Assembly (NCBI GenBank): GCA_010093605.1
Contig: MU004194.1
Span: 844,323 to 908,322 of the forward strand
Direction of reading: 5' to 3'
DNA: 64,000 bases
DNA from: Lophium mytilinum
Lineage: Eukaryota
Below the pieces are notes generated by a model, which saw only the letters and a list, made by a program, of their open reading frames with translations, was not told where the DNA came from and did no database searches. The position numbers and the translations under genes were made by a program. Positions 9,201-21,208 of the stretch are shown here, piece after piece. The number at the start of each line of letters is the position of its first letter. The first letter of the stretch is position 1.

Positions 9201-9415
9201 CTGCCTGTTCTTACTCTCAATCTATTCTATTGCAGCACAAGGACTTATATTTTCTTTTCATCTTTTCAGCCTTGCGGATATTGATACATGCGACCTTCAA
9301 ATTCACATCATGAGCACGTACCAAAGCCTTCCGACTCCCGTTTTATCTTGAGTTCAGTCCCGTTGTTCCATCATATTCACTCCTATTGAAACAAGTACGA
9401 GTGCCATTCTACAGT

Positions 9416-12400
9416 ATGCGGACGAATTTGACCGAATGCGGCATACGATACATGTCAAACCCGGAGTTGTCATGGAAATACGGATATAACGGCACAACTC
9501 GAGGAATCCCCCAGAACCCATTGACACAAGCTACTTTTGAGGGATGTGAGGCTCTTTGCGGTCGCGGCACTGACTTCTATCCGTGGGCAACAAGCTCAGC
9601 AACTATTACAACATGGATCTTGCCGGTGATCGGAATGATTTTACAGGCCCCTTTCGAAAGCAACGCCTTCAGACGAACGATTCTGGCTTTGTTCCGATGG
9701 CTGGGATCTCCAATGAGTTCCCTTTCCTACATCCTTTGGAATATAAAGGTCTCTGGCAAATGCGCGCTGATGGGTGAGTGTTAAGAATTTGTAGCATTCT
9801 TGTGAAGTCTGAATACTAAGTCAAGCCAGTTGATATGTCAGTACCTTACGAGAATTCAGTTCCAAACGAGGAAAGTGATTTTGCTCACATCCGGGATTCG
9901 TTCTATCTGCTTATGACGATGAATCAATACACTATGAACGACAGAGCATCATCCCGCAAGTCATCGGAGGGTTTACTACGTATCGTGCTCTTCAGCAGAG
10001 ATCTTCGCCTCCGAAACTCAAAACTGTCGCTGAAGCAAACACGCGAGAAGCTAGCAGAAGAACTAAGAGAAGGTCGAAAAAGAGGAGTGGTACCAGTCTT
10101 CGTTTCCACCATGTGGTTTCTCTTTGCACTCGCAATCTCTATCCAAAGCGCCTTCGGGTTCCTAGGAGAGAACACAACTGCACATGACCTAGCTCTCGGC
10201 TTCTTGCTCTCTTGGCTTCCCGTCCTAATTCTCGGCAGCATTGTCGACCGAAATCCAGTTGCCGCAGAAGACGTTCGAAGGAAACTGAATAAGCTTGTGG
10301 ACCATGTTCGAGTGTCACTTCTGAACGATGAGATTAGGAACGAGTTCATTCGATCGTGTACGTAAGCCCCCAACACAGATAAAAAGTTTCCCAGCAATAT
10401 GTCAGCTTGAAAAACTACTTAGGCAGTATTCCGAGACAGCCACTGGTACACCACTGCTTAGGGTACCCCTAGAGGGTTTCGAAGACTCGAGGGCGGTGTC
10501 AAACTTCAAGCAGTGCAGATTAGACTGCCTCTTGACTGATTGCCTGCTCAGCAGTCTGGCTACCCTCAACAGTGGTGTCTTGGAATTCCCTGAAGGAGTG
10601 TCTCACGCAGCATAACCTGTCATTCATATCGATTATCTCCCTCTGGCTCTGAAAGATTTGCTAACTTTACTGCCACCTTAAGTCGAAGGCCAAGCCGAGT
10701 TCCCGAGGGTAGAAGCCTGGGTGAAGGAAGTGTATGATAACTGTGAATACATGACTAAATTTTTCACCGCTTTTGCCGGCCAAGGAAGACGTCCATGGCA
10801 TTATGGAGCAGCGTAAGTCTTTACTAGAAGATCGCCATCCATGCATTCATATTGACCATGCTTCAGACACCCCATTCTTTCGGATATCGAACCTTATGTG
10901 GCCTCCAAGGGGCGCAACTGGCTCGACAACGAAGTAGAGGCACGCACACATCTAGTTCTCGGACTTGAAAGCAGAGGCTTGATCTGGTTTGACTTCAGAG
11001 AGTTTTGGCAGATATTGGCTTCGGTCGCAATCGTAACATTGACCATTGCCGGAGCATTCGTCATATCGTTCTTTACCCCTACCGTGGGCTTGGGCTGCCG
11101 GAGCGGGGGATACCTCATCTTTACCTGCATAAGCTTTGGGCTCCTCGTCTGCGAGCTGCTCGTTTGGTGGGCCTCGTCTCCGCCACAACCTGAGGAGCCG
11201 CAGTTGAACCAGCTGCTAAGTCGAACACGTACACGCCTGGAAAGCAACGCATCATTCGTAAGAGCAGAACAGACGTCGAGCAGGTTTTCGCACCGGACTT
11301 ACCAGATGATACTGGCTACCCGCGATTTCATTGAATCTTGGATGGTGCGGATCGTTGTTGGCTTTATCAGCATCCTACCCTTACGCAATAAAGATGCCGA
11401 CTGTCGATGGATTCGGGAAGTCATGGTAGGTCTCTTCACCACAATCCATAACTACAAGCTGAAGGAATGGACTCGATACTTCTTCTTCATACCTGTTGAG
11501 TTCGTGAATACAACCTGGCTCTGCTACATTGTATTCGCACAGACCTCCGGCTCATATCATAACTGTCGCTGTTCGACGTCTATGTGGGGAGGTGGCGGTG
11601 GATACATCGATTTCAAGCAATCGATAATCACAACCACTCCATGGGTACACCTTTATTGGATCGGCGGAACAGTCCTTGGGTGTACGACTATGGGTCTGTC
11701 TATGGTCTATATTGTCGTTGAGTGGTGCTTGCAGTCACACCTGAGCACCGAATCCTACCGCAAAGCCCAACGTGGACTTCAGAGAACACGCCTGTACCGC
11801 AAATTAACATTGCCCCTTCGGATCGTCACACGCTACATTGGCGATACTAGCTTCACGGCCTTCTGTTGGCTATGCGCAAAGCTGAACCTCAAATATAAGC
11901 ATGAGCGCTTTTTAATATGGACCTACGAAACGACATACTGGTACCGCCCTCCTTACTCTGGAGCTAGGAACTCACCACGGCCTCCCGACGACTACCATTC
12001 GCCACCAGGCCCACGCCCATCAACAGACGCCAGCACCCCATTCCTAGGATCGCCGTTTACTCAAAGTAGCCCTCCTACTACTCAATCGCATAAAACTCAA
12101 CCCTGTATGTATGGCAGCCCCGATCCAGGCATAGGACCGTCTAGCCCGCCTCCTCAGTACCGCCGCAAGAGCAGTGAAACCTCGGTTCAGCAACACTTAC
12201 AGCCATTTCCAAGGTTCTCCACGGAAATGGAAACGCGTGAACGAGCGACCAGCGACTCGTCCCAAATTCCGCTCATTCAAACGCCGAAAGAGGCACAGGG
12301 CTCGTTTATCATCCCACGGAAGCCTTCTGGGGGGTTGAGCGTAGGCCTGGGTATATCAACGCCCGTATCTCAATCTCCAACAAGACCTAGTATGGACAGT

Positions 12401-12667
12401 GCCATCAGTGCGACCAGTCCGACCGATGCGCGAGGGAGGATGTCAGAGGCGTATCTGTCGCCGACAGGTCTTCAGCGGAGTCCATCATCAGAAGACTGTC
12501 TACAGCCTCCGCTGCATCGGCCAACTTATGCTCGTCAGACAACGGATGAGAACTCGCGTCGAGGGAGTAGTGAAGAGAGGGAACAGGTTCGCAAGGGAGT
12601 TACTTGGGCGACTGAGGAGAGAGGGACTAGGAGTTTCCCACCATCGCAAGGACCGCGTTATTCTTAA
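9416..12667 (+). CDS. Uncharacterised fungal multi-pass membrane protein with Ser/Pro-rich C-terminal tail; exons ~9416-9773, 9830-10357, 10683-10812, 10867-12667 (start uncertain)
   Basis: Introns 9774-9829, 10358-10682 and 10813-10866 give one continuous frame (CALM-V-DMSV; FIRS-F-EGQAEF...WHYGA-A-HPILSDIE). Several hydrophobic segments; Cys motifs CEALCG and GLGCRSGGY. Confidence 0.8.
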
Positions 12668-13176
12668 CCTGGAGGGCCTAATCCCGAGATTTCATCTCTT
12701 TTTCAACTGTCGCATTTTGGAGGAGGTCTGGCACTGCCCTAGATGTAATGGCAAAATTGGTCTCCTAATCTGGATTTCGGTAATGCATATTCTACTGCTT
12801 TACTCATCAATATTAATCTACGACAGCATCTTGAACTGCCATGCTAAGTAATACGTTTCCGTATTGTCATTCGTACCGGAGCTTGAAGATGTGAACGTGG
12901 CTTCGCCAGCATCTCTTTGCGCTGAATTACTCATCACTCCCAGAGGATAAACATCTACGCTTCACATGTAAGAAATCACGATACGTTGATACCATCTCAG
13001 CTGCAGGTAGCAGCTTTCAAATGAACAACATGTACAGTTTTGTTTCGGTCGAAAACAACACGTTGCAAGACGGCCGTGGGATCAGGCTGCAACTATTCGA
13101 GGCGGAGTATAAACTGGTTTCCATTCCGCGATCCTTCAAGCACCTAAAGCTGGCCTTCATTCCTCAACTATTCCAA

Positions 13177-14814
13177 ATGTGGTTCCTAAATTGGTGTACG
13201 TGGTTTTGGATTACTCGTTGCGAGTCAGATACTTCCAGCCTCTCTATACTCCATCCATTCCGTGCAATACAAAACCCCCATCCCATGCTCCTCTAGCCTC
13301 CTACACGGCTAGAGATGATCCTCTGAACGCTTCAAGTACCTAGCTTATTATTTTGTGGTTCTAGTCTGGGATGCGCTCGCTAGTCTTGGGCTGTGGAACC
13401 GACACGCCGTACGTTCACATCATCTACTCCACGCCAGACAATGTTTCAACGCATCCACACTCTAATGTTACCCCTTTGGGGTGTTTGACTTTTGGGGTGG
13501 AGTTGCAAGATGAATCTCATGCTGATGGAAGGTTTGTGCTTAGAAAATCTTGTTCCTGGGCCTTGATAATGCCGGGAAGACGACTCTCTTCTATATGCTA
13601 AAGGTAAAGCTAACTATCACGACTTATTAAAGCCTAACAAGTCTCGTAGAGTCTATATCCAAGCTAACACCCGGTAGACTGATCGCCTGTACGTGTCCTT
13701 TCAACCTAACAAAGCCCCACTACATCTGCACACCTTGAAGGAGACACATATTCGTCTCACCATTTCGAACCCACTGCATCCTTTGGAATTGATAGGGTGT
13801 TTCATCGAATCCCATGCTAATCTACGACCCCTACGCCACAGCGCGGTCCACCAACCCACCTCCCAGCCCAGTAAGCCCATCCGCCGCATCTCCCCCAAGC
13901 GCTCACCAACCCATCCAGACAGCGAGGAACTCCGCATCGGAAACTGTGTCTTCAAAGCCTTCGACCTTGGAGGTACGCTCCCTTCCCCTCCTTCAAGTCC
14001 TTCTCCACATCACTCAAAATTACCACAGGCCACACCCAGGCGCGGCGGATCTGGAAATACGTAAGACGCCACATCCTCTGGTCCCCAAAACAGGCTGTTC
14101 ATACTGCTAATTCAAATTGAAATGCAGTACTTCCCCGAAGTCTCCGGTAAGCCACGCCCCCCGACCCTATTCCTTCCTTTGCTTTGCTTCAGAAAATGCT
14201 GTATTTCGGTACGGGTCCAACCTTGGTACGGACAGGCATCGTCTTCCTCGTCGACGCCGTCGACCGCGCGCGCTTCGGGGAGAGCAGGGAGGCGCTCGAA
14301 AGCCGTACGTTCTCCTCTCCCATCCATGAAATCCATGAAATCCATGAAATGCATTTCCCACTGACTAGCCTAAGTCCTGACTGCGGAGGAGCTGTCACAC
14401 ATCCCGATTCTAGTCCTGGGGAATAAGATCGATGGTATGCTACTTTCGCCTTCCAGCGATACTTGGAGGAGGTAGCTTACACAGGGCAGTGCCGGGCGCG
14501 GTATCTGAGCCCCAGCTTGTGAGTTTTTGTATTCTATGATTAGCGGCGGGTGTTGATAGCGAACAGCGCGATGAGCTCAAGCTGTCGTATACAACGGGCA
14601 AAGCGGGATTTCCGCTTGCTGGGTCGAGGCCGATTGAGATGTTCAGTAAGTGCCAGACGAAGACAAGGGGAGTGAGAAGCTATCATGTTGACTTGTGGTA
14701 GTGTGCAGTATCGTCCTCCGCCAGGGCTTCGGGGAAGGGATCAGGTGGCTGTAAGTTCATCTATCATGATCGACTGTAGGCGTGCTCACCAATCTTAGAT
14801 CGCAGTATGTGTGA
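13177..14814 (+). CDS. sar1: Sar1-family small GTPase (COPII), 189 aa, 14 exons: 13177-13195, 13365-13408, 13544-13603, 13678-13688, 13842-13870, 13919-13972, 14029-14060, 14128-14146, 14236-14304, 14375-14434, 14490-14518, 14567-14645, 14702-14750, 14799-14814
   Basis: Spliced exons total 570 nt: [189 protein letters not shown]. G1 (GLDNAGKTT), G3 (DLGGH) and G4 (NKID) are intact; all 13 introns are GT-AG. Confidence 0.92.
14323..14350 (+). repeat. 9-nt tandem repeat (TCCATGAAA)x3 inside intron 9 of the Sar1-like gene
   Basis: tccatgaaa tccatgaaa tccatgaaa t read directly. Confidence 0.9.
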
Positions 14815-17800
14815 GTGGTAGCTTTTGGGATGCTAAAAGCTGTTGGGATTGTTTTGAGAAGAAGTAAGAAGGGGTGCATACTGCGGATCTGATCGAGAGT
14901 GAGGTGAGAGAATTCGCAAATGGCATAATCAGTTCAAATCCTACATAAAACTAGTTTATCACAGTTGAGATTCGCTTGCCCCGCAGCCCTTTTCTCCACA
15001 CTTTCCTATTTCGGCCTCTCCTGAAGCCTCCGACCTCAAAACCGTGGAAGCCAGAGCGTGCCGCAGTCGCGAACGAATTTAATTCATGCAAATTCAACAA
15101 CACTCTTAATGGCTACTTTGATCCGGCAGATCGACTGAAGAAAGGTATGCGAAACTTTTTACCGTGGCGGATTTGTCAATTTCGTGTTTGGTGGAGAGCT
15201 GTACTTGAAGTGGGGGAAAAGACGTGCTGGCAGCTGGAATAGAGATTCGGGCCGGATTGGGCAATCTTGCAGGCTGAGCATACGATCATAGCCAAGAAGA
15301 GTAACGTTCAAAGTCTTTCACTGTCCTGGATCCGCTAGATGCGGGTGTCTGTGGGCGAAGATTGTCACAGGGGACAAAAGAGGCATCTAAGTTGCGGAGC
15401 GACGGAGCGACGGAGGGCCGAGTCCACGCTATCTGGGCTCCTTCCGCAGCCTCCTCAAAGTTTGCGCTCTAAGCCCATGGAAAGCACTGCCTAGGACTTA
15501 CGTGTTGTATCGCGCTGCTGGCAGCCATTCTGCGCTCCTATCTGGGACGCCAAGACATGCCCAGCGTGCACTTGATACACGACCTGACGAGAGCGCAACG
15601 ACACGCAAGCAAAACACGAATCCGTCGATCGGCAGATCCAGGAGAGAGACCACAGCGTGACAGGAAGGTGAGACAATGCACTGCCTCATCGTCGCCAAGA
15701 ATCTAGTATAACACCGCGGTGGGGAAAGCGGACTCACAATCGCTGGTGTCCAAGAGATGTGTTGTTGATGCCCATTTTGCCAAGTCGATAACTCACATGC
15801 TGCAGATGCATCTCACAATTACGGCACTACCCGTGGCCGATTCGAACAATGCTCACGCAAGATTCGTCGTCAGATCAACGGAATGCCTTGGCGATATCTT
15901 GGCTCCGTTGCACCCGTGCTTCCTGAGCCCCTTGGCCTTAAGGGGGTCTCTTGGTCTGTAGCACAAGGAAACGGTGTTGCAGACGCACGGCAGATTGCCA
16001 AACGTCTTGGCTCGACCACATGTCTTTCTTTCAACGTCTGCAGTTGGTTCCTGGTGGTTTGATGGCATCCGATGCGGCGAAAGACCGAGCGGAACCTGCA
16101 ACGGTACCGGAGCGTGCCGTGTCGCCGTTATGTTGGTGAACAGTGGAAGGCAAGCGCCAAGATGGAGATGTCAGGAAAGGAGTTGAGGCGTGCTTTGTGA
16201 TATGGTTTTCGGAGTCCGAAAGCATAATATATGCCAAGAACGAGGAATGAGATCTGGCGGCTTCAACAGGCTATTTACGGACACAGGTCCTGCCGATGAA
16301 GCCGTGTAACACTGATCAGCTCGATAAGATTGAAACGGTAATTGAATTGATAACTAGATATCTATACAAACTAGATGGCGACCTCACTACACTACCTACC
16401 TTGTTCCCTAAGCATTTGCTGCGTAGACCCTGACTTGGCAGCCGGAAGAGCCGTCAGGACCGTTCCGTCTTCCGTAGTTGGGTCGGTTTATCTGGTACGC
16501 CACGCTCATCGACGTCACTATGGCAGGATACCAATAGGGTCAAGGGGGTCGGGCAGATCTCGGAGGTACCTACTGTAGCTACCACTTCACCGACAGATGG
16601 AACCTTGGAACAACACATGATGGCCTCGTGCGAGCAGGTGCCGAGTGCTTATTCCCGGCGTATTCTCTGTCACGACGTCTGCTCTATCACGACTTCTGCG
16701 TTAGGCCCCTGGTGCGGAATACGGCGCGCCGCGGAAGAACAACAAGACAATGGGAGGCGAATCAGGCCATCCGCGCACGTCGAGAAAGAATGCGAGTGTG
16801 TAAGAGGCCCGGAATAAAGGGTCCTCCAAAAAACCAAACATTTGGCGGGGCAGTCGTGCGATGGAGAGAGTTCCCCGCACTTGCAAGGAGTGGCCCTCGA
16901 TTTGCCGGTTGCGGCGCTTCAGAGATTGGGGCGCTGGGGTCGCTCAGCGCGCCGGGAGAGGTTGAAGCAGCCCCTGGCACTTGGGTGAAGCATGAATCGC
17001 GCACATGCGGAGGGACGGATAGGGACGAAACAACAGCCAGGGCAATGGTAGGATGGAAATGGCGGGCGGCAGCGATGGTGTCGAGGATGGCGCCTTCGTG
17101 TTGCTGTCAGATGACAGCGTCTGTAGAGGGGCCCAGACGGGCTCGCATCTGTCGTGAGCGATATAATGAGCGGTGTGAGGTGGAGGGGGAAGGGCGACGC
17201 GAAGCTCCACCTCTACAGCTCTGGCATTCTGAACATACAGAAGAGCAAACATTTGAGAGATGAGGGACTCGGGAGGTCAGCGATTGCTCGGCAGCTGGTG
17301 AGACACACATATGGCCCATCGCTGCCGCAAATCGCCATGGTCTTCATGCAATAGAGGCTTGAGTGCGGCGACGCGCAGCTGGCGCGCATATATCAAAAAG
17401 CGCAGCGGTGGCAGGCGTGGTGTGGACCGGCGTCAACTTGCCCCATCTGGAGGCGGGCTGAAGTGGTTGGCCTCGCTTTGTTATCGTTGCAGCAGCGGCA
17501 TGCAGACGGCCTGGCTTTCATTCGATGCGCTCGAGCTGGCGTTGCAGCGGTCGGAGGGAGACGGGCATCACCACGGGCGCGTGCCTCGGGAGCTGCTTCA
17601 TGCTCTGCCAGGGCCTGTACTGTACTGCAGCACAGTAGTGCCGCTCAGCACGTCTATCAAGGTTTCCAAATCGTCTATCAGGGTCCTGACGGATTCCCAG
17701 GCGTCCGGGGCTGTGGACAAGCCCTAGCAAGAGTGACGTGAGGAGGTTGAAGCAGGATTGTGGGATTCCAGTTTGGTACCGGCAGTGCAGCCGGGTGCAC

Positions 17801-18919
17801 AGTCAGCAGCAGCGGCGTACCGAATAGCCCAGAAAAGGACGGGCGGGTGCTGACCAAACGGGGGGCGAGCAATGCCCGAGTTTTGCTTGGAGAGCGAGTT
17901 CTGGTGAAAGGAATGTGTGCTGCGCATCAAAGAGCGATGGATGACAATAACAGCGTCAAGCTGTGGTCAGCTGGTGGTGCCGTCTAGAACAAACCTTGGT
18001 GCCCAGCAGTGCCCAGCGCCTCTGCCCTACTTATCGCCGTATTGCCTCTGTGCGCGGTCGATGCTCATCTGCGGTGTGCACATCCCGAAAATTACTGAGG
18101 CCACGCGCGCTGAAGGCTGCATTACTGGCTCGGCTTACCCGCCGGCGGACGTCTCCCAAAGCTTGCAGTGCCCAGCGAACCTCGTTTCGGTGACAATTAT
18201 TACAAAGGGCCCACCCACCGCCGCCGAGCACGCACCGTCCATCGCCCACAGTCAGTGCCAAAATCTCTGTCTCCCACACCAACAACACACTCTGCTCTGA
18301 GCCCTCGCCGTCGTGCGTGTCGCGCGCAGCAAGATCGCCAGCCTCTCCCCCGTCCGTCCACTCGCGAGCCATCTCTTGCGCGTCCCCGTCGAGGTGTGTC
18401 GTGCAGCCAAGGCCTTGCCACTCGTCCGTAGCGCATCACCATCATCCATAGCCGCAGTCCGCAAGGTACTTCCTTTCCACCCATTGCTCTGCACGCCAGG
18501 ATCCCGACTGAACTCCACTGCAGCGCATCCTCGAATGCCGTTTCAGCAACGCTCCTAATCCTCCGCCATGTTCCTGACGATATTATAACACGTCGGTCCC
18601 TAGGGACACTCCTCCGCCCACACAACGACGCCGCATACTCACCCGTCCACCGCAATCCTACTCCCTCCTTCGACCTTCCAGTTCACTGCCACTCCCAGGA
18701 CACGCGCAGCAACTGGTCACACTAGGAATCCTCTAACTCCTACTATTCTGCGGAGGCCACACCGCGTCTTCCTCACCCCTCCCGAAGCTATTCCACTTGA
18801 CTACATCTCTACCACTCGTATTGCGCCTACCCTGTCACCGCACATTCACTTTGTAGAAGACTGCTAGAGTCCTCTCAAGATCTTCTACTTCCACCATTTC
18901 ACGTAAAAGCGACCACGCA

Positions 18920-21208
18920 ATGGCACTCCACCAGGACCACCGTGGGCCACACGGCGTGCAAGAGAACCGCGCCCTCCAGAACCTGCCGACGACAATGGCC
19001 TCTACTTCTTCCGACGAGGAGATTCTAGCCGACGCCGACGAACCTCCCGACTTACAAAAGACCCCTCGTCCCTTTGCGTCGAGAATCCCTACGAGCACCT
19101 TCTCGAAAACGACACCTCCGCCTAACCAGCGCAAAGAGTCACTCTTAACAAGTGCCTTAACCTCCGCACAATCACCCGTTACGGACGATGCCCCAGAAAC
19201 CATTCTATCACGAGGATTGTCGTCCGCTTCGACGTGGAGTGACCGGAGCACTGCATCAACCGCAGAGCTCACAAGCGACGGAGGTTGCACTAGTCCCGGA
19301 ACAAGGACAAGCACGCCAAGTCCTCCACTCCCCTCGGGCTCTTTCCACAGGATGGGTCCAGTCTTCAAACAGAAACCATTCGACCATCATGTCTCCATCG
19401 TTCGCCACGACGAAGAGCACATCGGGCCACTTCAGAAACCTACACCCGCCTTGACCGAGAACGTCGTGGAAGCAAATCTGGGTCGCAAACGCTGCATCAC
19501 CTTTGCTTGTGGGCGGAAGGATTCTCCAAAGGCGCAACCGCCTCCAGCACCCGTGCAGGCAGCGCCAGAAGCTCCCAAGCGAGTATGCACCATCAAATTT
19601 GCATGCCCTTCCAAAGTTTTTACACAAGCTCCCACGAGCAGCCCGAAGCCTCGTGCTCGGCATGTGAGTCCGGCTCCGATGCCCCGTAGACTCAAGGAAT
19701 CACCCAAGACATCGTCCCCAAAATCACACCGCGACTCTGACTCGACCGTCCGAAATGAATCACCCCGGAGTCTTCGCAAACCCTCTCTGGCCTCAAGGCA
19801 GCGTAAGCTAAGCCTCAACTCAGATCTTGCAAGGTCTGAGGCTTTCCGTTTTCACGAATTTGCCAGCTCCGAGGACGAGGCGGATGAATGGACTCAGGAG
19901 TCTACTTGCCATCGGACTCGTCTCACAGTGACTGACACCCTGAAAGTCGAAAACACTCTCCGACAACTTGGCGAGGAGATTGAAGAGGAAGTGATGGAGG
20001 ACGAAGACGAGGAGGATCTTCAAGAAGACGAAGATGGAGATAACGATGATGATGATGAAGAGGAAGAGGCTAGCTACGACTCTGTATCTGACGACGGATT
20101 TCACTCAGATGATGAAAAGGGATACGGGTCAGGTGAAGAGAGCGATACTGGATCTGACTATCGTTGGTGGGCTCCTGGACAATCGACTGCAGCCACTTCG
20201 ATGGACCATATTGAGCACATCCGGCCAGTGGGACACAGGACCGTTTCAGAGTCTTCGATCGGGTCACTTGACAGCGCTTCGAGCTCTGGGAGAAAGGCTA
20301 AAGTATCCAAGCCACCAAAGCGGAGGAAATCATCCCACCCGCTCGCCATCCGAGCACCAAGTCCAGAACTGCCCGATAGCACCGACTTCGTTTGCGGAAC
20401 CCTTGACGAGGACCGGCCCTTAGAGGATGCCTACATGTCGTGTCTTGAACGGCGCCGCGCAGCAAAGCACAAAGCTTGCCCTCAGGATATCGATCCAACC
20501 TTCCCGCAATCCGATCCGGAGATGGAAGAGGAGGACGAAAACGAAGAGCTAGAAGAAGCCGAAGATGAGAGCGACCAGCATCTCATGGTGCACGGTCAGA
20601 TGGACGCAGAGGAAGAGAACGAGCTTCGTGGCCGTCGCAAAGGACAGCCTAAGAGACGATCTCCGGCACAATCACCAAAACGCCTCCGGTCACCGCCACC
20701 CATGAAACGATGCAGGTCCCCGCCTCCTCGTAAGCTCTTCGTTCACTCTCCCAAGCGTCTTCGGTCTCCTCCTGCGCCAATGCGCCTCCGGTCCCCTCCA
20801 CCTACCCGGCGTACATCTCTCATCACATCACCAAACCGCATGGCGGTCCGATTCGCTGGACTCGCCGAAAGACCTCCTATTACCGAATCCTCTTCTCTCC
20901 CGCGAACGCCCGTCACTGCCAATCCTCCTGAGCTCTATGAAGATGACGAGGACAACACCAATGAGTTCCCTACTCGTGGTGCGATAGATATCAAGCTTGG
21001 CCTCGAGCGCAAGCGACTCCGACGTAGGGAAAAGCTGTATCAAAAGCTGCATCGCAAAACTATCAAGGAGAAGGAGAAACGCCCAGCGCCTGGAAGGGGT
21101 GCCGAGAGAATGCGCGAGATGGGCATGGGCCTTGCAGCAAAGGGACGCAAGAATAGCTTCCCTGCCCGGCCACAGGCTGATGGCGACGTACACATGTTAT
21201 CAGTGTAG
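18920..21208 (+). CDS. Conserved fungal disordered, acidic/Ser-Pro-rich protein, probably DUF2457-like; intronless, 762 aa
   Basis: Long single ORF with an acidic tract, RSPPP repeats and a conserved-looking block PSPELPDSTDFVCGTLDEDRPLEDAY...PQDIDPTFP. Family name is from memory. Confidence 0.8.
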   Translation: MALHQDHRGPHGVQENRALQNLPTTMASTSSDEEILADADEPPDLQKTPRPFASRIPTSTFSKTTPPPNQRKESLLTSALTSAQSPVTDDAPETILSRGLSSASTWSDRSTASTAELTSDGGCTSPGTRTSTPSPPLPSGSFHRMGPVFKQKPFDHHVSIVRHDEEHIGPLQKPTPALTENVVEANLGRKRCITFACGRKDSPKAQPPPAPVQAAPEAPKRVCTIKFACPSKVFTQAPTSSPKPRARHVSPAPMPRRLKESPKTSSPKSHRDSDSTVRNESPRSLRKPSLASRQRKLSLNSDLARSEAFRFHEFASSEDEADEWTQESTCHRTRLTVTDTLKVENTLRQLGEEIEEEVMEDEDEEDLQEDEDGDNDDDDEEEEASYDSVSDDGFHSDDEKGYGSGEESDTGSDYRWWAPGQSTAATSMDHIEHIRPVGHRTVSESSIGSLDSASSSGRKAKVSKPPKRRKSSHPLAIRAPSPELPDSTDFVCGTLDEDRPLEDAYMSCLERRRAAKHKACPQDIDPTFPQSDPEMEEEDENEELEEAEDESDQHLMVHGQMDAEEENELRGRRKGQPKRRSPAQSPKRLRSPPPMKRCRSPPPRKLFVHSPKRLRSPPAPMRLRSPPPTRRTSLITSPNRMAVRFAGLAERPPITESSSLPRTPVTANPPELYEDDEDNTNEFPTRGAIDIKLGLERKRLRRREKLYQKLHRKTIKEKEKRPAPGRGAERMREMGMGLAAKGRKNSFPARPQADGDVHMLSV

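Follow-up and report, generated by a model that had tools for sequence, protein, structure and literature searches.

A probable functional, intron-dense Sar1 paralogue in the fungus Lophium mytilinum

A Sar1-type gene of Lophium mytilinum (Dothideomycetes, Mytilinidiaceae), divided into 14 exons of 11-79 nt, was rebuilt from the raw sequence at positions 13177-14814 (+) of the window, the 64-kb stretch of DNA that was analysed. The locus appears to be a real protein-coding gene for a second COPII-initiating GTPase Sar1, and it is regarded as a paralogue because the canonical Sar1 exists in the same species. Fungal Sar1 is normally a single, slowly evolving and essential gene. The data are best explained by a transcribed, fast-evolving Sar1 paralogue, restricted to this lineage and probably functional, in which about 8-10 introns were gained, a reading that we consider likely.

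Gene structure and transcripts

The joined exons gave 570 nt, corresponding to 189 codons and a TGA stop, with an ATG start, and all 13 introns (48-169 nt) had GT..AG borders. An identical set of introns was recovered by our own spliced aligner with two guide proteins, P0002 (the relative from Mytilinidion resinicola) and P0234 (the canonical Sar1 of Mytilinidiaceae). An earlier note on this DNA had described 14 exons joined at GT-AG sites into an uninterrupted 189-aa Sar1 with a normal stop, at about one intron per 44 coding nt; the reconstruction led to the same result and the same density (570/13). The 14-exon model cannot be a product of chance, because its product shares 91.5% identity over 189 aa with the protein of another species.

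The features are listed below. Intron positions are given as full codons followed by nucleotides (6.1 = 6 full codons, then 1 nt). Canonical structures are the 51 unique ones obtained from the 70 intron-bearing loci among 80 metagenome Sar1 loci, L023 being a canonical-type locus of the Dothideomycete clade. Joints are those of transcript-like contigs from the public run X1.

13177-13195, + strand: exon 1, 19 nt; ATG; M W F L N W and 1 nt; joint 13195>13365
13196-13364, + strand: intron 1, 169 nt; position 6.1, common to most canonical Pezizomycotina Sar1 genes, in 34/51 structures
13365-13408, + strand: exon 2, 44 nt
13409-13543, + strand: intron 2, 135 nt; position 21.0, absent from canonical genes, nearest 21.1 (L023); joint 13408>13544
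13544-13603, + strand: exon 3, 60 nt; P-loop GLDNAGKT
13604-13677, + strand: intron 3, 74 nt; position 41.0, ancestral, in 22/51 structures; contig with 11 letters between 13603 and 13842
13678-13688, + strand: exon 4, 11-nt micro-exon; the contig joining 13603 to 13842 has exactly its 11 letters
13689-13841, + strand: intron 4, 153 nt; position 44.2, absent from canonical genes
13842-13870, + strand: exon 5, 29 nt; switch I, QPT
13871-13918, + strand: intron 5, 48 nt; position 54.1, ancestral, in 32/51 structures; joint 13870>13919
13919-13972, + strand: exon 6, 54 nt; DLGG motif at its end
13973-14028, + strand: intron 6, 56 nt; position 72.1, absent from canonical genes (76.1 there); joint 13970>14027, cut +2
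14029-14060, + strand: exon 7, 32 nt; catalytic His, switch II
14061-14127, + strand: intron 7, 67 nt; position 83.0, exact match in one canonical-type locus only (L023); joint 14060>14128
14128-14146, + strand: exon 8, 19 nt
14147-14235, + strand: intron 8, 89 nt; position 89.1; seen only unspliced in contigs, retention giving a frame shift
14236-14304, + strand: exon 9, 69 nt
14305-14374, + strand: intron 9, 70 nt; position 112.1, nearest canonical 113.0 (L023); joint 14304>14375
14375-14434, + strand: exon 10, 60 nt; NKID
14435-14489, + strand: intron 10, 55 nt; position 132.1, exact match in L023 only; joint 14433>14489, cut +1
14490-14518, + strand: exon 11, 29 nt
14519-14566, + strand: intron 11, 48 nt; position 142.0, absent from canonical genes; joint 14518>14567
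14567-14645, + strand: exon 12, 79 nt, the longest exon
14646-14701, + strand: intron 12, 56 nt; position 168.1, nearest canonical 168.2 and 169.2 (Lipomyces-like loci); joint 14645>14702
14702-14750, + strand: exon 13, 49 nt; G5 CSI
14751-14798, + strand: intron 13, 48 nt; position 184.2, absent from canonical genes (176.1 there); joint 14750>14799
14799-14814, + strand: exon 14, 16 nt; finishes L, then S Q Y V and TGA; not in the NCBI model

The transcript-like contigs revealed exact junctions for 12 of the 13 introns, the 11-nt exon included; run X1 was labelled RNA by guess, and its cDNA-like nature is deduced from these intron-skipping contigs. All seven contig records at the locus were at least 99% alike. 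The earlier note had proposed junction reads for all 13 introns as a check, and only the junction of intron 8 failed to appear: this intron was retained in a 147-nt contig (record 3, depth 27.6), no spliced joint for it was present among the joints listed for the X1 contigs, and no CTRAY branch-site motif was seen near its 3' end when the sequence was read. Both P0001, the NCBI model, and P0002 from M. resinicola treat the exon 8/exon 9 junction as spliced. We infer that a spliced form of intron 8 exists, since the contigs break exactly 30 letters into shared sequence on both sides and since about 11 depth units remain unexplained across exon 8 and the first part of exon 9, with none over the intron. 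A minor contig (record 2, depth 6.8) retained introns 4 and 5 together. With intron 8 kept in a well-covered contig and this pair in a poorly covered one, the splicing of such a large number of introns would seem to be imperfect.

The paralogue was already present in NCBI as KAF2492207.1 (P0001, Lophium mytilinum), a record reached with the 53-aa open frame around exon 12 as the query. As a protein record exists, the description of the gene as hidden in the earlier note was overstated; its expectation that gene finders may mangle the gene was borne out, as the NCBI model is wrong. KAF2492207.1 equals the rebuilt product except for exons 4-5, replaced by an in-frame read-through, and the C-terminus, where the last 16-nt exon is absent, which results in 15 wrong residues beside switch I and four missing C-terminal residues. 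The transcript contigs disagree with this model, and TDRL, encoded at exon 4, agrees with M. resinicola P0002. The record is a concrete case of public gene models failing on micro-exons. Mis-modelled Sar1 proteins with retained-intron insertions after residue 41, the position of intron 3, were also noticed.

Sar1 family membership and relation to the canonical copy

In the Pfam analysis, the NCBI model and its orthologue scored 175 bits (P0001) and 195.5 bits (P0002) for the Arf family (PF00025), with a cut-off of 22.3. The best solved structures were Sar1 chains (E-values of 2e-74 to 3e-63) and the best Arf reached only 1.7e-27. The named matches among the best 120 database hits were annotated as Sar1/COPII GTPase or as generic Arf/GTP-binding protein. 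All G-boxes reported in the earlier note were found, with GLDNAGKT, the switch-I Thr in QPT, DLGGH, NKID and CSI intact in the paralogues of both species. The residue following DxxG is His in Sar1 and Gln at the same place in Arf. Another hallmark of Sar1 is that its N-terminal amphipathic helix lacks a Gly2 myristoylation site; the N-terminus of the paralogue is colinear with the canonical MWIVNWFFDVLASLGL and has such a helix and no Gly2 site. A replacement of the Mg-binding Thr of switch I by Asn was considered and ruled out, as the alignment with yeast Sar1 keeps the QPT Thr (aligned with yeast T54) and the change concerns the Thr four positions later.

The canonical fungal SAR1 (S. cerevisiae Sar1p, 1M2O chain B; P0234) resembles the paralogue in its 189-aa length, colinearity, N-terminal hydrophobic helix, P-loop, switch-I Thr, DLGGH, NKID and C-terminal WLSQYV. 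The paralogue differs in being only about 70% identical (69.8% to P0234), in ten changed near-invariant residues, in having 13 introns versus 1-7 and in its co-existence with the canonical copy in one genome. The product would most likely still cycle between GDP and GTP on the ER membrane like Sar1, judging from the kept amphipathic helix, P-loop, switch-I Thr, DLGG with the catalytic His, NKID and G5 in its sequence, perhaps with altered partners or regulation.

The canonical Sar1 P0234 (KAF2496760.1, KAF2816619.1; UniRef label 'n=2 Tax=Mytilinidiaceae') was present in both L. mytilinum and M. resinicola, in accordance with the paralogue reading in the earlier note. Only the paralogue locus was matched in the 64-kb window and no canonical copy was found there; the latter lies in another part of the genome and is presumably the one that fulfils the essential function. 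The window gene is not a one-to-one orthologue of canonical fungal SAR1. The canonical proteins of the two species show 0 differences and the paralogues differ at 16 of 189 positions. Among the best 120 hits from a database of 5.8 billion proteins, M. resinicola P0002 was the only close relative, with the remaining 118 being 57-69% identical to the paralogue, while canonical Pezizomycotina Sar1 proteins are 82-87% identical among themselves. Annotation failure may in part explain why the paralogue is missing from other proteomes, as genes with such small exons are hard to predict.

The stem branch of the paralogue pair was 0.94 changes per site, with a median end branch of 0.056, and its crown branches were short (0.044 + 0.072). 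In an alignment of 145 canonical Sar1 proteins, 88 of the 102 columns conserved at 97% or more were kept in the paralogues of both species, and ten such columns were changed in both (e.g., H53Q, T55N, T68A, D83Y and Y178F). The differences between the two paralogues were mostly conservative (V/I, S/T, E/D). In a free quick tree, the pair was placed outside Pezizomycotina in an unresolved ascomycete polytomy. Trees constrained to unite the pair with Dothideomycetes had a likelihood above that of the free search, and in the AU test no placement was rejected (p = 0.82 with Dothideomycetes, 0.75 with the Pleosporomycetidae type and 0.66 with the Mytilinidiaceae canonical copy). Only four columns separated Dothideomycetes from other Pezizomycotina and the paralogue had mixed states in them; they are therefore of no help in dating the duplication.

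Origin of the introns

The 38 full-length unique canonical structures had 1-7 introns (mode 5), compared with 13 in the paralogue. Three positions were widely common, 6.1 (34/51), 41.0 (22/51) and 54.1 (32/51). Positions 83.0 and 132.1 were found in one structure of 51 each, the same single locus L023, and the other eight in none. The canonical Sar1 genes of related fungi thus do not have this set of 13 introns, and no more than 3 of its positions are common among them. The earlier note had set intron gain beside the retention of an intron-rich paralogue; with eight positions seen in 0 of 51 structures, gain is the more probable of the two. Allowing GC donors altered 7 of 80 alignments and left the conclusions unchanged. 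Pezizomycetes-, Leotiomycetes-, Eurotiomycetes- and Lecanoromycetes-like loci have in common only 6.1, 41.0, 54.1, 76.1 and 176.1, and Lipomyces-like loci have 4.2 in place of 6.1. A common origin of intron 13 and the C-terminal extensions of Pleosporales was rejected, as the last intron there is 176.1, not 184.2. Canonical Dothideomycete Sar1 loci have a 2-nt exon and a 12-nt exon.

According to the preferred reading of gain in a functional paralogue, three introns (6.1, 41.0 and 54.1) would go back to the ancestral Sar1 gene of Pezizomycotina, two further ancestral introns, 76.1 and 176.1, would have been lost and about 8-10 introns would have been inserted later, in the lineage of the paralogue. 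The new introns are taken to be insertions and not intronised coding sequence because the 189-aa product is exactly colinear with canonical Sar1. We tentatively suggest, as one possible course of events, that after a duplication limited to Mytilinidiaceae or their near relatives, one Sar1 copy underwent a joint burst of protein change and 8-10 intron insertions. If this is true, the gene, with about 23 introns per kb of coding sequence, would rank among the most intron-dense ascomycete genes known; it would point to locus-specific intron gain, e.g., repeated insertion of now-decayed introner-like elements under relaxed selection, and to the presence in these bark-dwelling fungi of an additional Sar1 with a specialised role in ER export.

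Rather unlikely, in our view, is that the introns were retained, i.e., that the paralogue either was copied from an intron-richer early Dothideomycete Sar1 or is itself an older paralogue, and that it kept introns which canonical copies lost later, possibly through conversion with reverse-transcribed mRNA. All four non-ancestral introns of L023 lie at most 2 nt from introns of the paralogue (83.0 and 132.1 exact, 21.1 vs 21.0 and 113.0 vs 112.1), which could indicate shared ancestry; by our own estimate, random placement over 567 positions would give such agreement with a probability of about 2e-4 for L023 and about 0.01 after 51 structures are taken into account. However, parallel gains within a few bases of the introns of other species are documented in Dothideomycetes in the accessible part of Collemare et al. 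2015 (PMC4457414), and a mechanism for 1-nt intron shifts is described in what is available of PMC5587772. The long stem and short crown of the pair would fit an old duplication if the rate was steady, and intron 5.2, carried by 11 of the 51 canonical structures (Dothideomycete type), is missing from the paralogue. Against this stand the eight positions absent from all 51 structures and the small set of five positions common to the loci of four other classes. Moreover, of the best 120 hits the M. resinicola protein was the only relative above 69% identity, so that many losses would have to be assumed for a paralogue of great age.

Drift of the duplicate towards a pseudogene, with the introns and the retained-intron transcripts being neutral or mildly harmful, seems quite improbable. 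The very fast evolution relative to the canonical copy, the change of ten highly conserved columns in both species, the frame-shifting intron 8 seen only retained and the minor contig with introns 4 and 5 would agree with decay, but the frame stays open through all 14 exons from a normal start to a normal stop, another genus has an orthologue of the full 189 aa, all nucleotide-binding motifs are kept together with most invariant columns, the two species differ mainly by conservative changes and transcripts of the gene have 12 of the 13 introns spliced out. Horizontal acquisition from an intron-rich lineage, e.g., a basidiomycete or an early-diverging fungus, is hardly credible: the position of the pair in the free quick tree and its similar identity to all fungal phyla (61-69%) would allow it, but trees with the pair in Dothideomycetes were more likely than the free search and not rejected, positions 6.1, 41.0 and 54.1 are common with Pezizomycotina (4.2 replacing 6.1 in Lipomyces-like loci), the donors (GTACGT, GTAAGT) and intron sizes resemble, by our own reading, those of canonical Dothideomycete loci, and the best 120 hits contained no candidate for a donor lineage.

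For the introns presumed gained in the paralogue, a source was sought in the sequences themselves. Introner-like elements are reportedly, as van der Burgt et al. are said to have found in 2012, of unusually stable predicted secondary structure; the 13 introns showed no excess fold stability (z from -1.93 to +1.72 vs 100 shuffles). Comparison of the 13 introns with one another, with the 64-kb window and with the 80 loci revealed no introner-like similarity, only chance matches of 8-19 nt. No sign of repeat-induced point mutation was seen: judged against the usual thresholds, the locus, with RIP-type dinucleotide indices of 0.85 and 1.14, hardly departs from the window (0.70 and 1.21). In the available text of PMC4457414, introner-like elements are many near-identical intron copies in unrelated genes of one genome, which decay fast and become indistinguishable from ordinary introns. 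Since Dothideomycetes have documented elements and gains and the elements decay quickly, introner-like elements would be the most likely source of the presumed gained introns.

Comparison with known systems

Two Sar1 genes in one genome suggest a division of labour in ER export. Vertebrates also have two, SAR1A and SAR1B, whose structures were both among the solved-structure matches; their duplication was independent. The vertebrate proteins are far more alike, with SAR1B having a special role in the export of large cargo. The SarB proteins of protists, as described in the accessible part of Vargova et al. 2021 (PMC8358228), are likewise Sar1-like proteins always occurring beside a bona fide Sar1 and having their own intron positions; SarB generally has Trp in Walker B and Sar1 has Phe. 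The identification of the paralogue as SarB was ruled out by the Phe preceding its Walker B Asp (AFDLGG) and by its grouping with ascomycete Sar1.

The introner-like elements and parallel gains of Dothideomycetes presented in the available text of PMC4457414 concern the same class, several new introns per gene and near-coincident positions. That text reports two gains per gene, whereas the paralogue has ten extra positions in 570 nt; in contrast to introner-like elements, near-identical intron copies were found neither in the paralogue gene nor in the 64-kb window and 80 loci. Fungal micro-exons and stwintrons are similar in that splicing must proceed in consecutive reactions where exons are very short. 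A stwintron, by the definition given in abstracts, was ruled out because no splice signal of the paralogue is interrupted by another intron.

No publication was found on a fungal Sar1 paralogue, on Mytilinidion resinicola Sar1 or on intron gain in fungal Sar1. A co-resident paralogue with about 30% of residues changed and the GTPase core kept could represent a new branch in the regulation of ER export. The locus is also a compact natural experiment on introns, with 13 of them, one 11-nt exon and at least eight positions new to canonical genes in 570 coding bases, for which the conserved sister gene of that genome provides an internal control and the second species can date each gain.

Two further observations were made on the locus. 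A 9-nt unit is repeated three times in tandem inside intron 9 (14323-14349), and the neighbours of the gene have long open frames of 1809 nt (10856-12664) and 2349 nt (18857-21205).

Gene structure and splicing of the divergent Sar1 gene

The divergent Sar1 gene had been proposed, from sequence alone, to consist of 14 exons, and this structure was confirmed by the joined reading frame, by protein-guided realignment with two different guides and by joints in transcript-like contigs. The exons joined by a script gave 570 nt without an internal stop (189 codons and TGA). All 13 introns are of the GT..AG type and 48 to 169 nt in size. Exons have a GC content of 58% and introns one of 41–65%, the window as a whole averaging 52.5%. 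A protein-guided spliced aligner, written for this analysis and blind to the proposed exon model, returned the identical 13 introns with either guide, P0002 (the Mytilinidion resinicola relative of the protein) or P0234 (the canonical Sar1 of both L. mytilinum and M. resinicola). The intron positions, given as the number of preceding codons followed by the phase, are 6.1, 21.0, 41.0, 44.2, 54.1, 72.1, 83.0, 89.1, 112.1, 132.1, 142.0, 168.1 and 184.2. Intron 9 contains a 9-nt unit (TCCATGAAA) repeated three times in tandem (14323-14349).

Features of the locus (window positions) and introns skipped in contigs of the sequencing run X1
9300-12850, +: upstream gene, with a 1809-nt open frame at 10856-12664
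13177-14814, +: divergent Sar1 paralogue, 14 exons
13196-13364, +: intron, precisely skipped
13409-13543, +: intron, precisely skipped
13871-13918, +: intron, precisely skipped
13973-14028, +: intron, skipped (reported with cut +2)
14061-14127, +: intron, precisely skipped
14147-14235, +: intron 8, retained in a 147-nt contig
14305-14374, +: intron, precisely skipped
14435-14489, +: intron, skipped (reported with cut +1)
14519-14566, +: intron, precisely skipped
14646-14701, +: intron, precisely skipped
14751-14798, +: intron, precisely skipped
18857-21205, +: downstream long open frame, full-length DUF2457 match (PF10446, E 1.7e-133)

A single public run, X1, whose label 'RNA?' is a guess, contained 41% of the words sampled from 13000-15000, and its contigs were placed on 12900-15100. 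All seven X1 records were at least 99% alike to the window in that region, with no differing letters. In one contig, 13603 was joined to 13842 with the exact 11 letters of exon 4 between them; together with the skipped introns, this means that 12 of the 13 introns and the 11-nt micro-exon were seen spliced. For intron 8, no spliced joint was present among the X1 contigs listed, and it was kept whole in a 147-nt contig (depth 27.6) spanning 10 letters at the end of exon 7, exon 8, intron 8 and 29 letters of exon 9. We infer an additional form in which exon 8 is spliced to exon 9, since this contig begins and ends exactly 30 letters into sequence common to both forms and since bin depths over exon 8 and where exon 9 begins, but not in intron 8, lie ~11 above the sum of the listed contigs; X1 has eleven further pieces outside that list. 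Retention of intron 8 would shift the reading frame. Introns 4 and 5 (13689-13918) were retained together, with intron 3 removed, in a contig of depth 6.8.

The X1 contig carrying exons 1-4 runs ~3.4 kb further upstream, which could come from transcripts that read through or overlap, or from contig assembly across two genes only 326 nt apart. The upstream 1809-nt frame had no Pfam match. Both neighbours have long unbroken frames against a longest exon of 79 nt in the paralogue, a comparison of frame length and not of intron number.

The open frame around exon 12 matched one protein, 'small COPII coat GTPase SAR1 [Lophium mytilinum]' (P0001, KAF2492207.1, 186 aa). The earlier note had described the gene as hidden and liable to be mangled by gene finders; as this NCBI record exists with two model errors, the gene is mangled but not hidden. 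P0001 equals the joined product except that exons 4 and 5 (14 residues) give way to 15 residues read in frame from the sequence upstream of exon 6 and that the final exon (SQYV) is missing. This model is contradicted by the X1 contigs, and the residues of micro-exon 4 and exon 5 agree with P0002.

A fast-evolving Sar1 copy in Mytilinidiaceae

The Pfam Arf profile scored 175 bits for P0001, 195.5 bits for P0002 and 214 bits for P0234. The top solved structures were Sar1 from yeast and mammals (E 2e-74 to 3e-63), with 1.7e-27 for the best Arf. The G-boxes, all of which had been read from the sequence earlier, proved intact in the divergent copies of both species, including unbroken NKID and CSI motifs and the QPT Thr, which aligns to yeast T54, the magnesium-binding switch-I Thr. 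Conservation was evaluated against 145 colinear 189-aa canonical sequences out of 272 proteins collected. In canonical Sar1, 102 columns reach at least 97% conservation; 88 of these were kept in both divergent copies, and 10 were changed in both (K19R, L37F, N42T, H53Q, T55N, T68A, D83Y, E109A/T, F124I/V and Y178F). The Walker B residue of the paralogue is Phe; PMC8358228 gives Phe as typical of Sar1 and Trp of SarB.

A search of 5.8 billion proteins with P0001 revealed one close relative among the best 120 matches, P0002 (189 aa), 91.5% identical to the joined product (16 of 189 residues differ between the species). The remaining 118 of these matches were 57–69% identical, at a similar level in ascomycetes, basidiomycetes and mucoromycetes; canonical Pezizomycotina Sar1 proteins are 82–87% identical among themselves. 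P0234, 'small COPII coat GTPase sar1', was found among members of ten clusters and is 69.8% identical to the paralogue. Its UniRef label ('n=2 Tax=Mytilinidiaceae') and accessions (KAF2496760.1, KAF2816619.1 and XP_033583583.1), whose ranges fit those of P0001 (Lophium) and P0002 (KAF2816353.1, Mytilinidion), indicate that both species carry an identical canonical Sar1 protein and a divergent copy. The canonical gene was absent from the 64-kb window. The M. resinicola records of P0002 and P0234 name the same longest contig (3,067,355 bases) and are 266 accession numbers apart, so both genes probably lie on one scaffold; the corresponding L. mytilinum accession numbers are separated by 4553.

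In quick maximum-likelihood trees of 51 named proteins, or of 52 named and 5 metagenome-derived ones, chosen without unnamed and most over-long proteins, the Lophium–Mytilinidion pair was placed in an unresolved ascomycete polytomy on a stem of 0.87–0.94 changes per site, versus a median end branch of ~0.06. Constraining the pair with Dothideomycetes (AU p = 0.82), Pleosporomycetidae-type sequences (p = 0.75) or the Mytilinidiaceae canonical copy (p = 0.66) was not rejected, and all three constrained trees exceeded the free search in likelihood. As all three placements stand, the protein gives no date for the duplication, and the data are fully compatible with a recent, lineage-specific origin and subsequent fast change. 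The locus is a transcribed, fast-evolving and probably functional Sar1 paralogue, so far known only from Mytilinidiaceae; no published description of it was found in the literature.

Probable intron gain and canonical Sar1 structures

A metagenome scan with P0234 yielded 80 loci, in which the aligner found at least one intron in 70 and none in 10, the latter being cDNA-like contigs or yeasts. Once loci alike in both protein and intron pattern were merged, 51 unique structures remained of the 70. Dropping 13 partial or low-scoring ones left 38 unique full-length structures for the intron count, and groups were assigned via the nearest named proteins.

Introns per canonical structure (n = 38) and common positions by group
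Structures with 1, 2, 3, 4, 5, 6 and 7 introns: 1, 1, 10, 8, 15, 1 and 2
Pezizales-, Helotiales- and Teloschistales-like: 6.1, 41.0, 54.1, 76.1, 176.1
Eurotiomycete-like: 41.0, 54.1, 76.1, 176.1
Lipomyces-like: 41.0, 54.1
Didymellaceae-like and loci nearest P0234 (97–98% identical): 5.2, 6.1, 50.1, 54.1, 176.1
Fulvia- and Friedmanniomyces-like (Mycosphaerellales-like): 6.1, 35.0, 151.1
Alternaria-like: 19.0, 27.2, 34.2, 47.2, 84.1

Mapping of intron positions onto other Sar1 genes, as proposed in the earlier note, showed that canonical genes carry at most 7 introns and not these 13; with ~23 introns per coding kb, the paralogue has ~2 times the highest density among the 38 structures. Among the 51 structures, position 6.1 occurred in 34, 41.0 in 22 and 54.1 in 32, while the common positions 76.1 (20/51) and 176.1 (24/51) are missing from the paralogue. 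Positions 83.0 and 132.1 occurred once each, in one locus (L023), and the other eight in none. The earlier suggestion of a retained intron-rich paralogue or massive intron gain was supported; a canonical Sar1 coexists in the species. The paralogue product and canonical Sar1 are exactly colinear, and the extra introns are therefore insertions and not intronised coding sequence. With eight positions found in none of the 51 structures and a canonical maximum of 7 introns, the simplest reading is a net gain of ~8–10 introns in the paralogue lineage.

The locus L023 encodes a Dothideomycete Sar1 of canonical type that shares 88% identity with P0234 and falls inside the clade at 96% support. The remaining two of its non-ancestral introns, 21.1 and 113.0, miss the paralogue positions 21.0 and 112.1 by 1 and 2 nt, respectively. 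By our own estimate, such coincidences under random placement have a probability of ~2e-4 for that locus and ~0.01 allowing for 51 structures; either the four introns are older and inherited, or parallel gain took place at preferred sites. PMC4457414 reports the latter for Dothideomycetes, in which new introner-like elements insert no more than 15 bp from introns that other species carry; it also states that such elements soon become indistinguishable from ordinary introns. The introner-like similarity looked for was found neither among the 13 introns nor with other parts of the window or with the 80 loci, and neither excess fold stability of the introns nor RIP-like composition at the locus was found.

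Canonical positions showed strong turnover inside Dothideomycetes (L013, L024-L026, L030-L039 and L044), the Didymellaceae-, Mycosphaerellales- and Alternaria-like patterns and that of the loci nearest P0234 all being of Dothideomycete type, whereas other classes keep 6.1, 41.0, 54.1, 76.1 and 176.1. An apparent 2-nt exon 'GT' lies between complete introns 5.2 and 6.1 in Dothideomycete-type loci (11/51 structures; L058, L017, L019, L023, L048, L060, L061, L063-L066, L070, L076 and L077), each intron with its own GT donor, CTRAY-like branch motif and AG acceptor. In the paralogue this stretch is uninterrupted (...TGGT|GTACGT), as in other Pezizomycotina classes. A 12-nt micro-exon between 50.1 and 54.1 occurred in 9/51 canonical structures (L058, L017, L048, L060, L070, L076 and others), so the paralogue is not alone in having micro-exons in its switch-I region.

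In Pleosporales and other fungi, many of the public Sar1 models run to 200–290 aa (P0024, P0090, P0125, P0128-P0130 and others), with C-terminal or internal extensions beginning at intron positions, after residues 41, ~54 and ~176. Small exons seem to have been systematically mis-predicted across the gene family, and the canonical maps fit the insertions after residues 41 and ~54 in these mis-modelled proteins.
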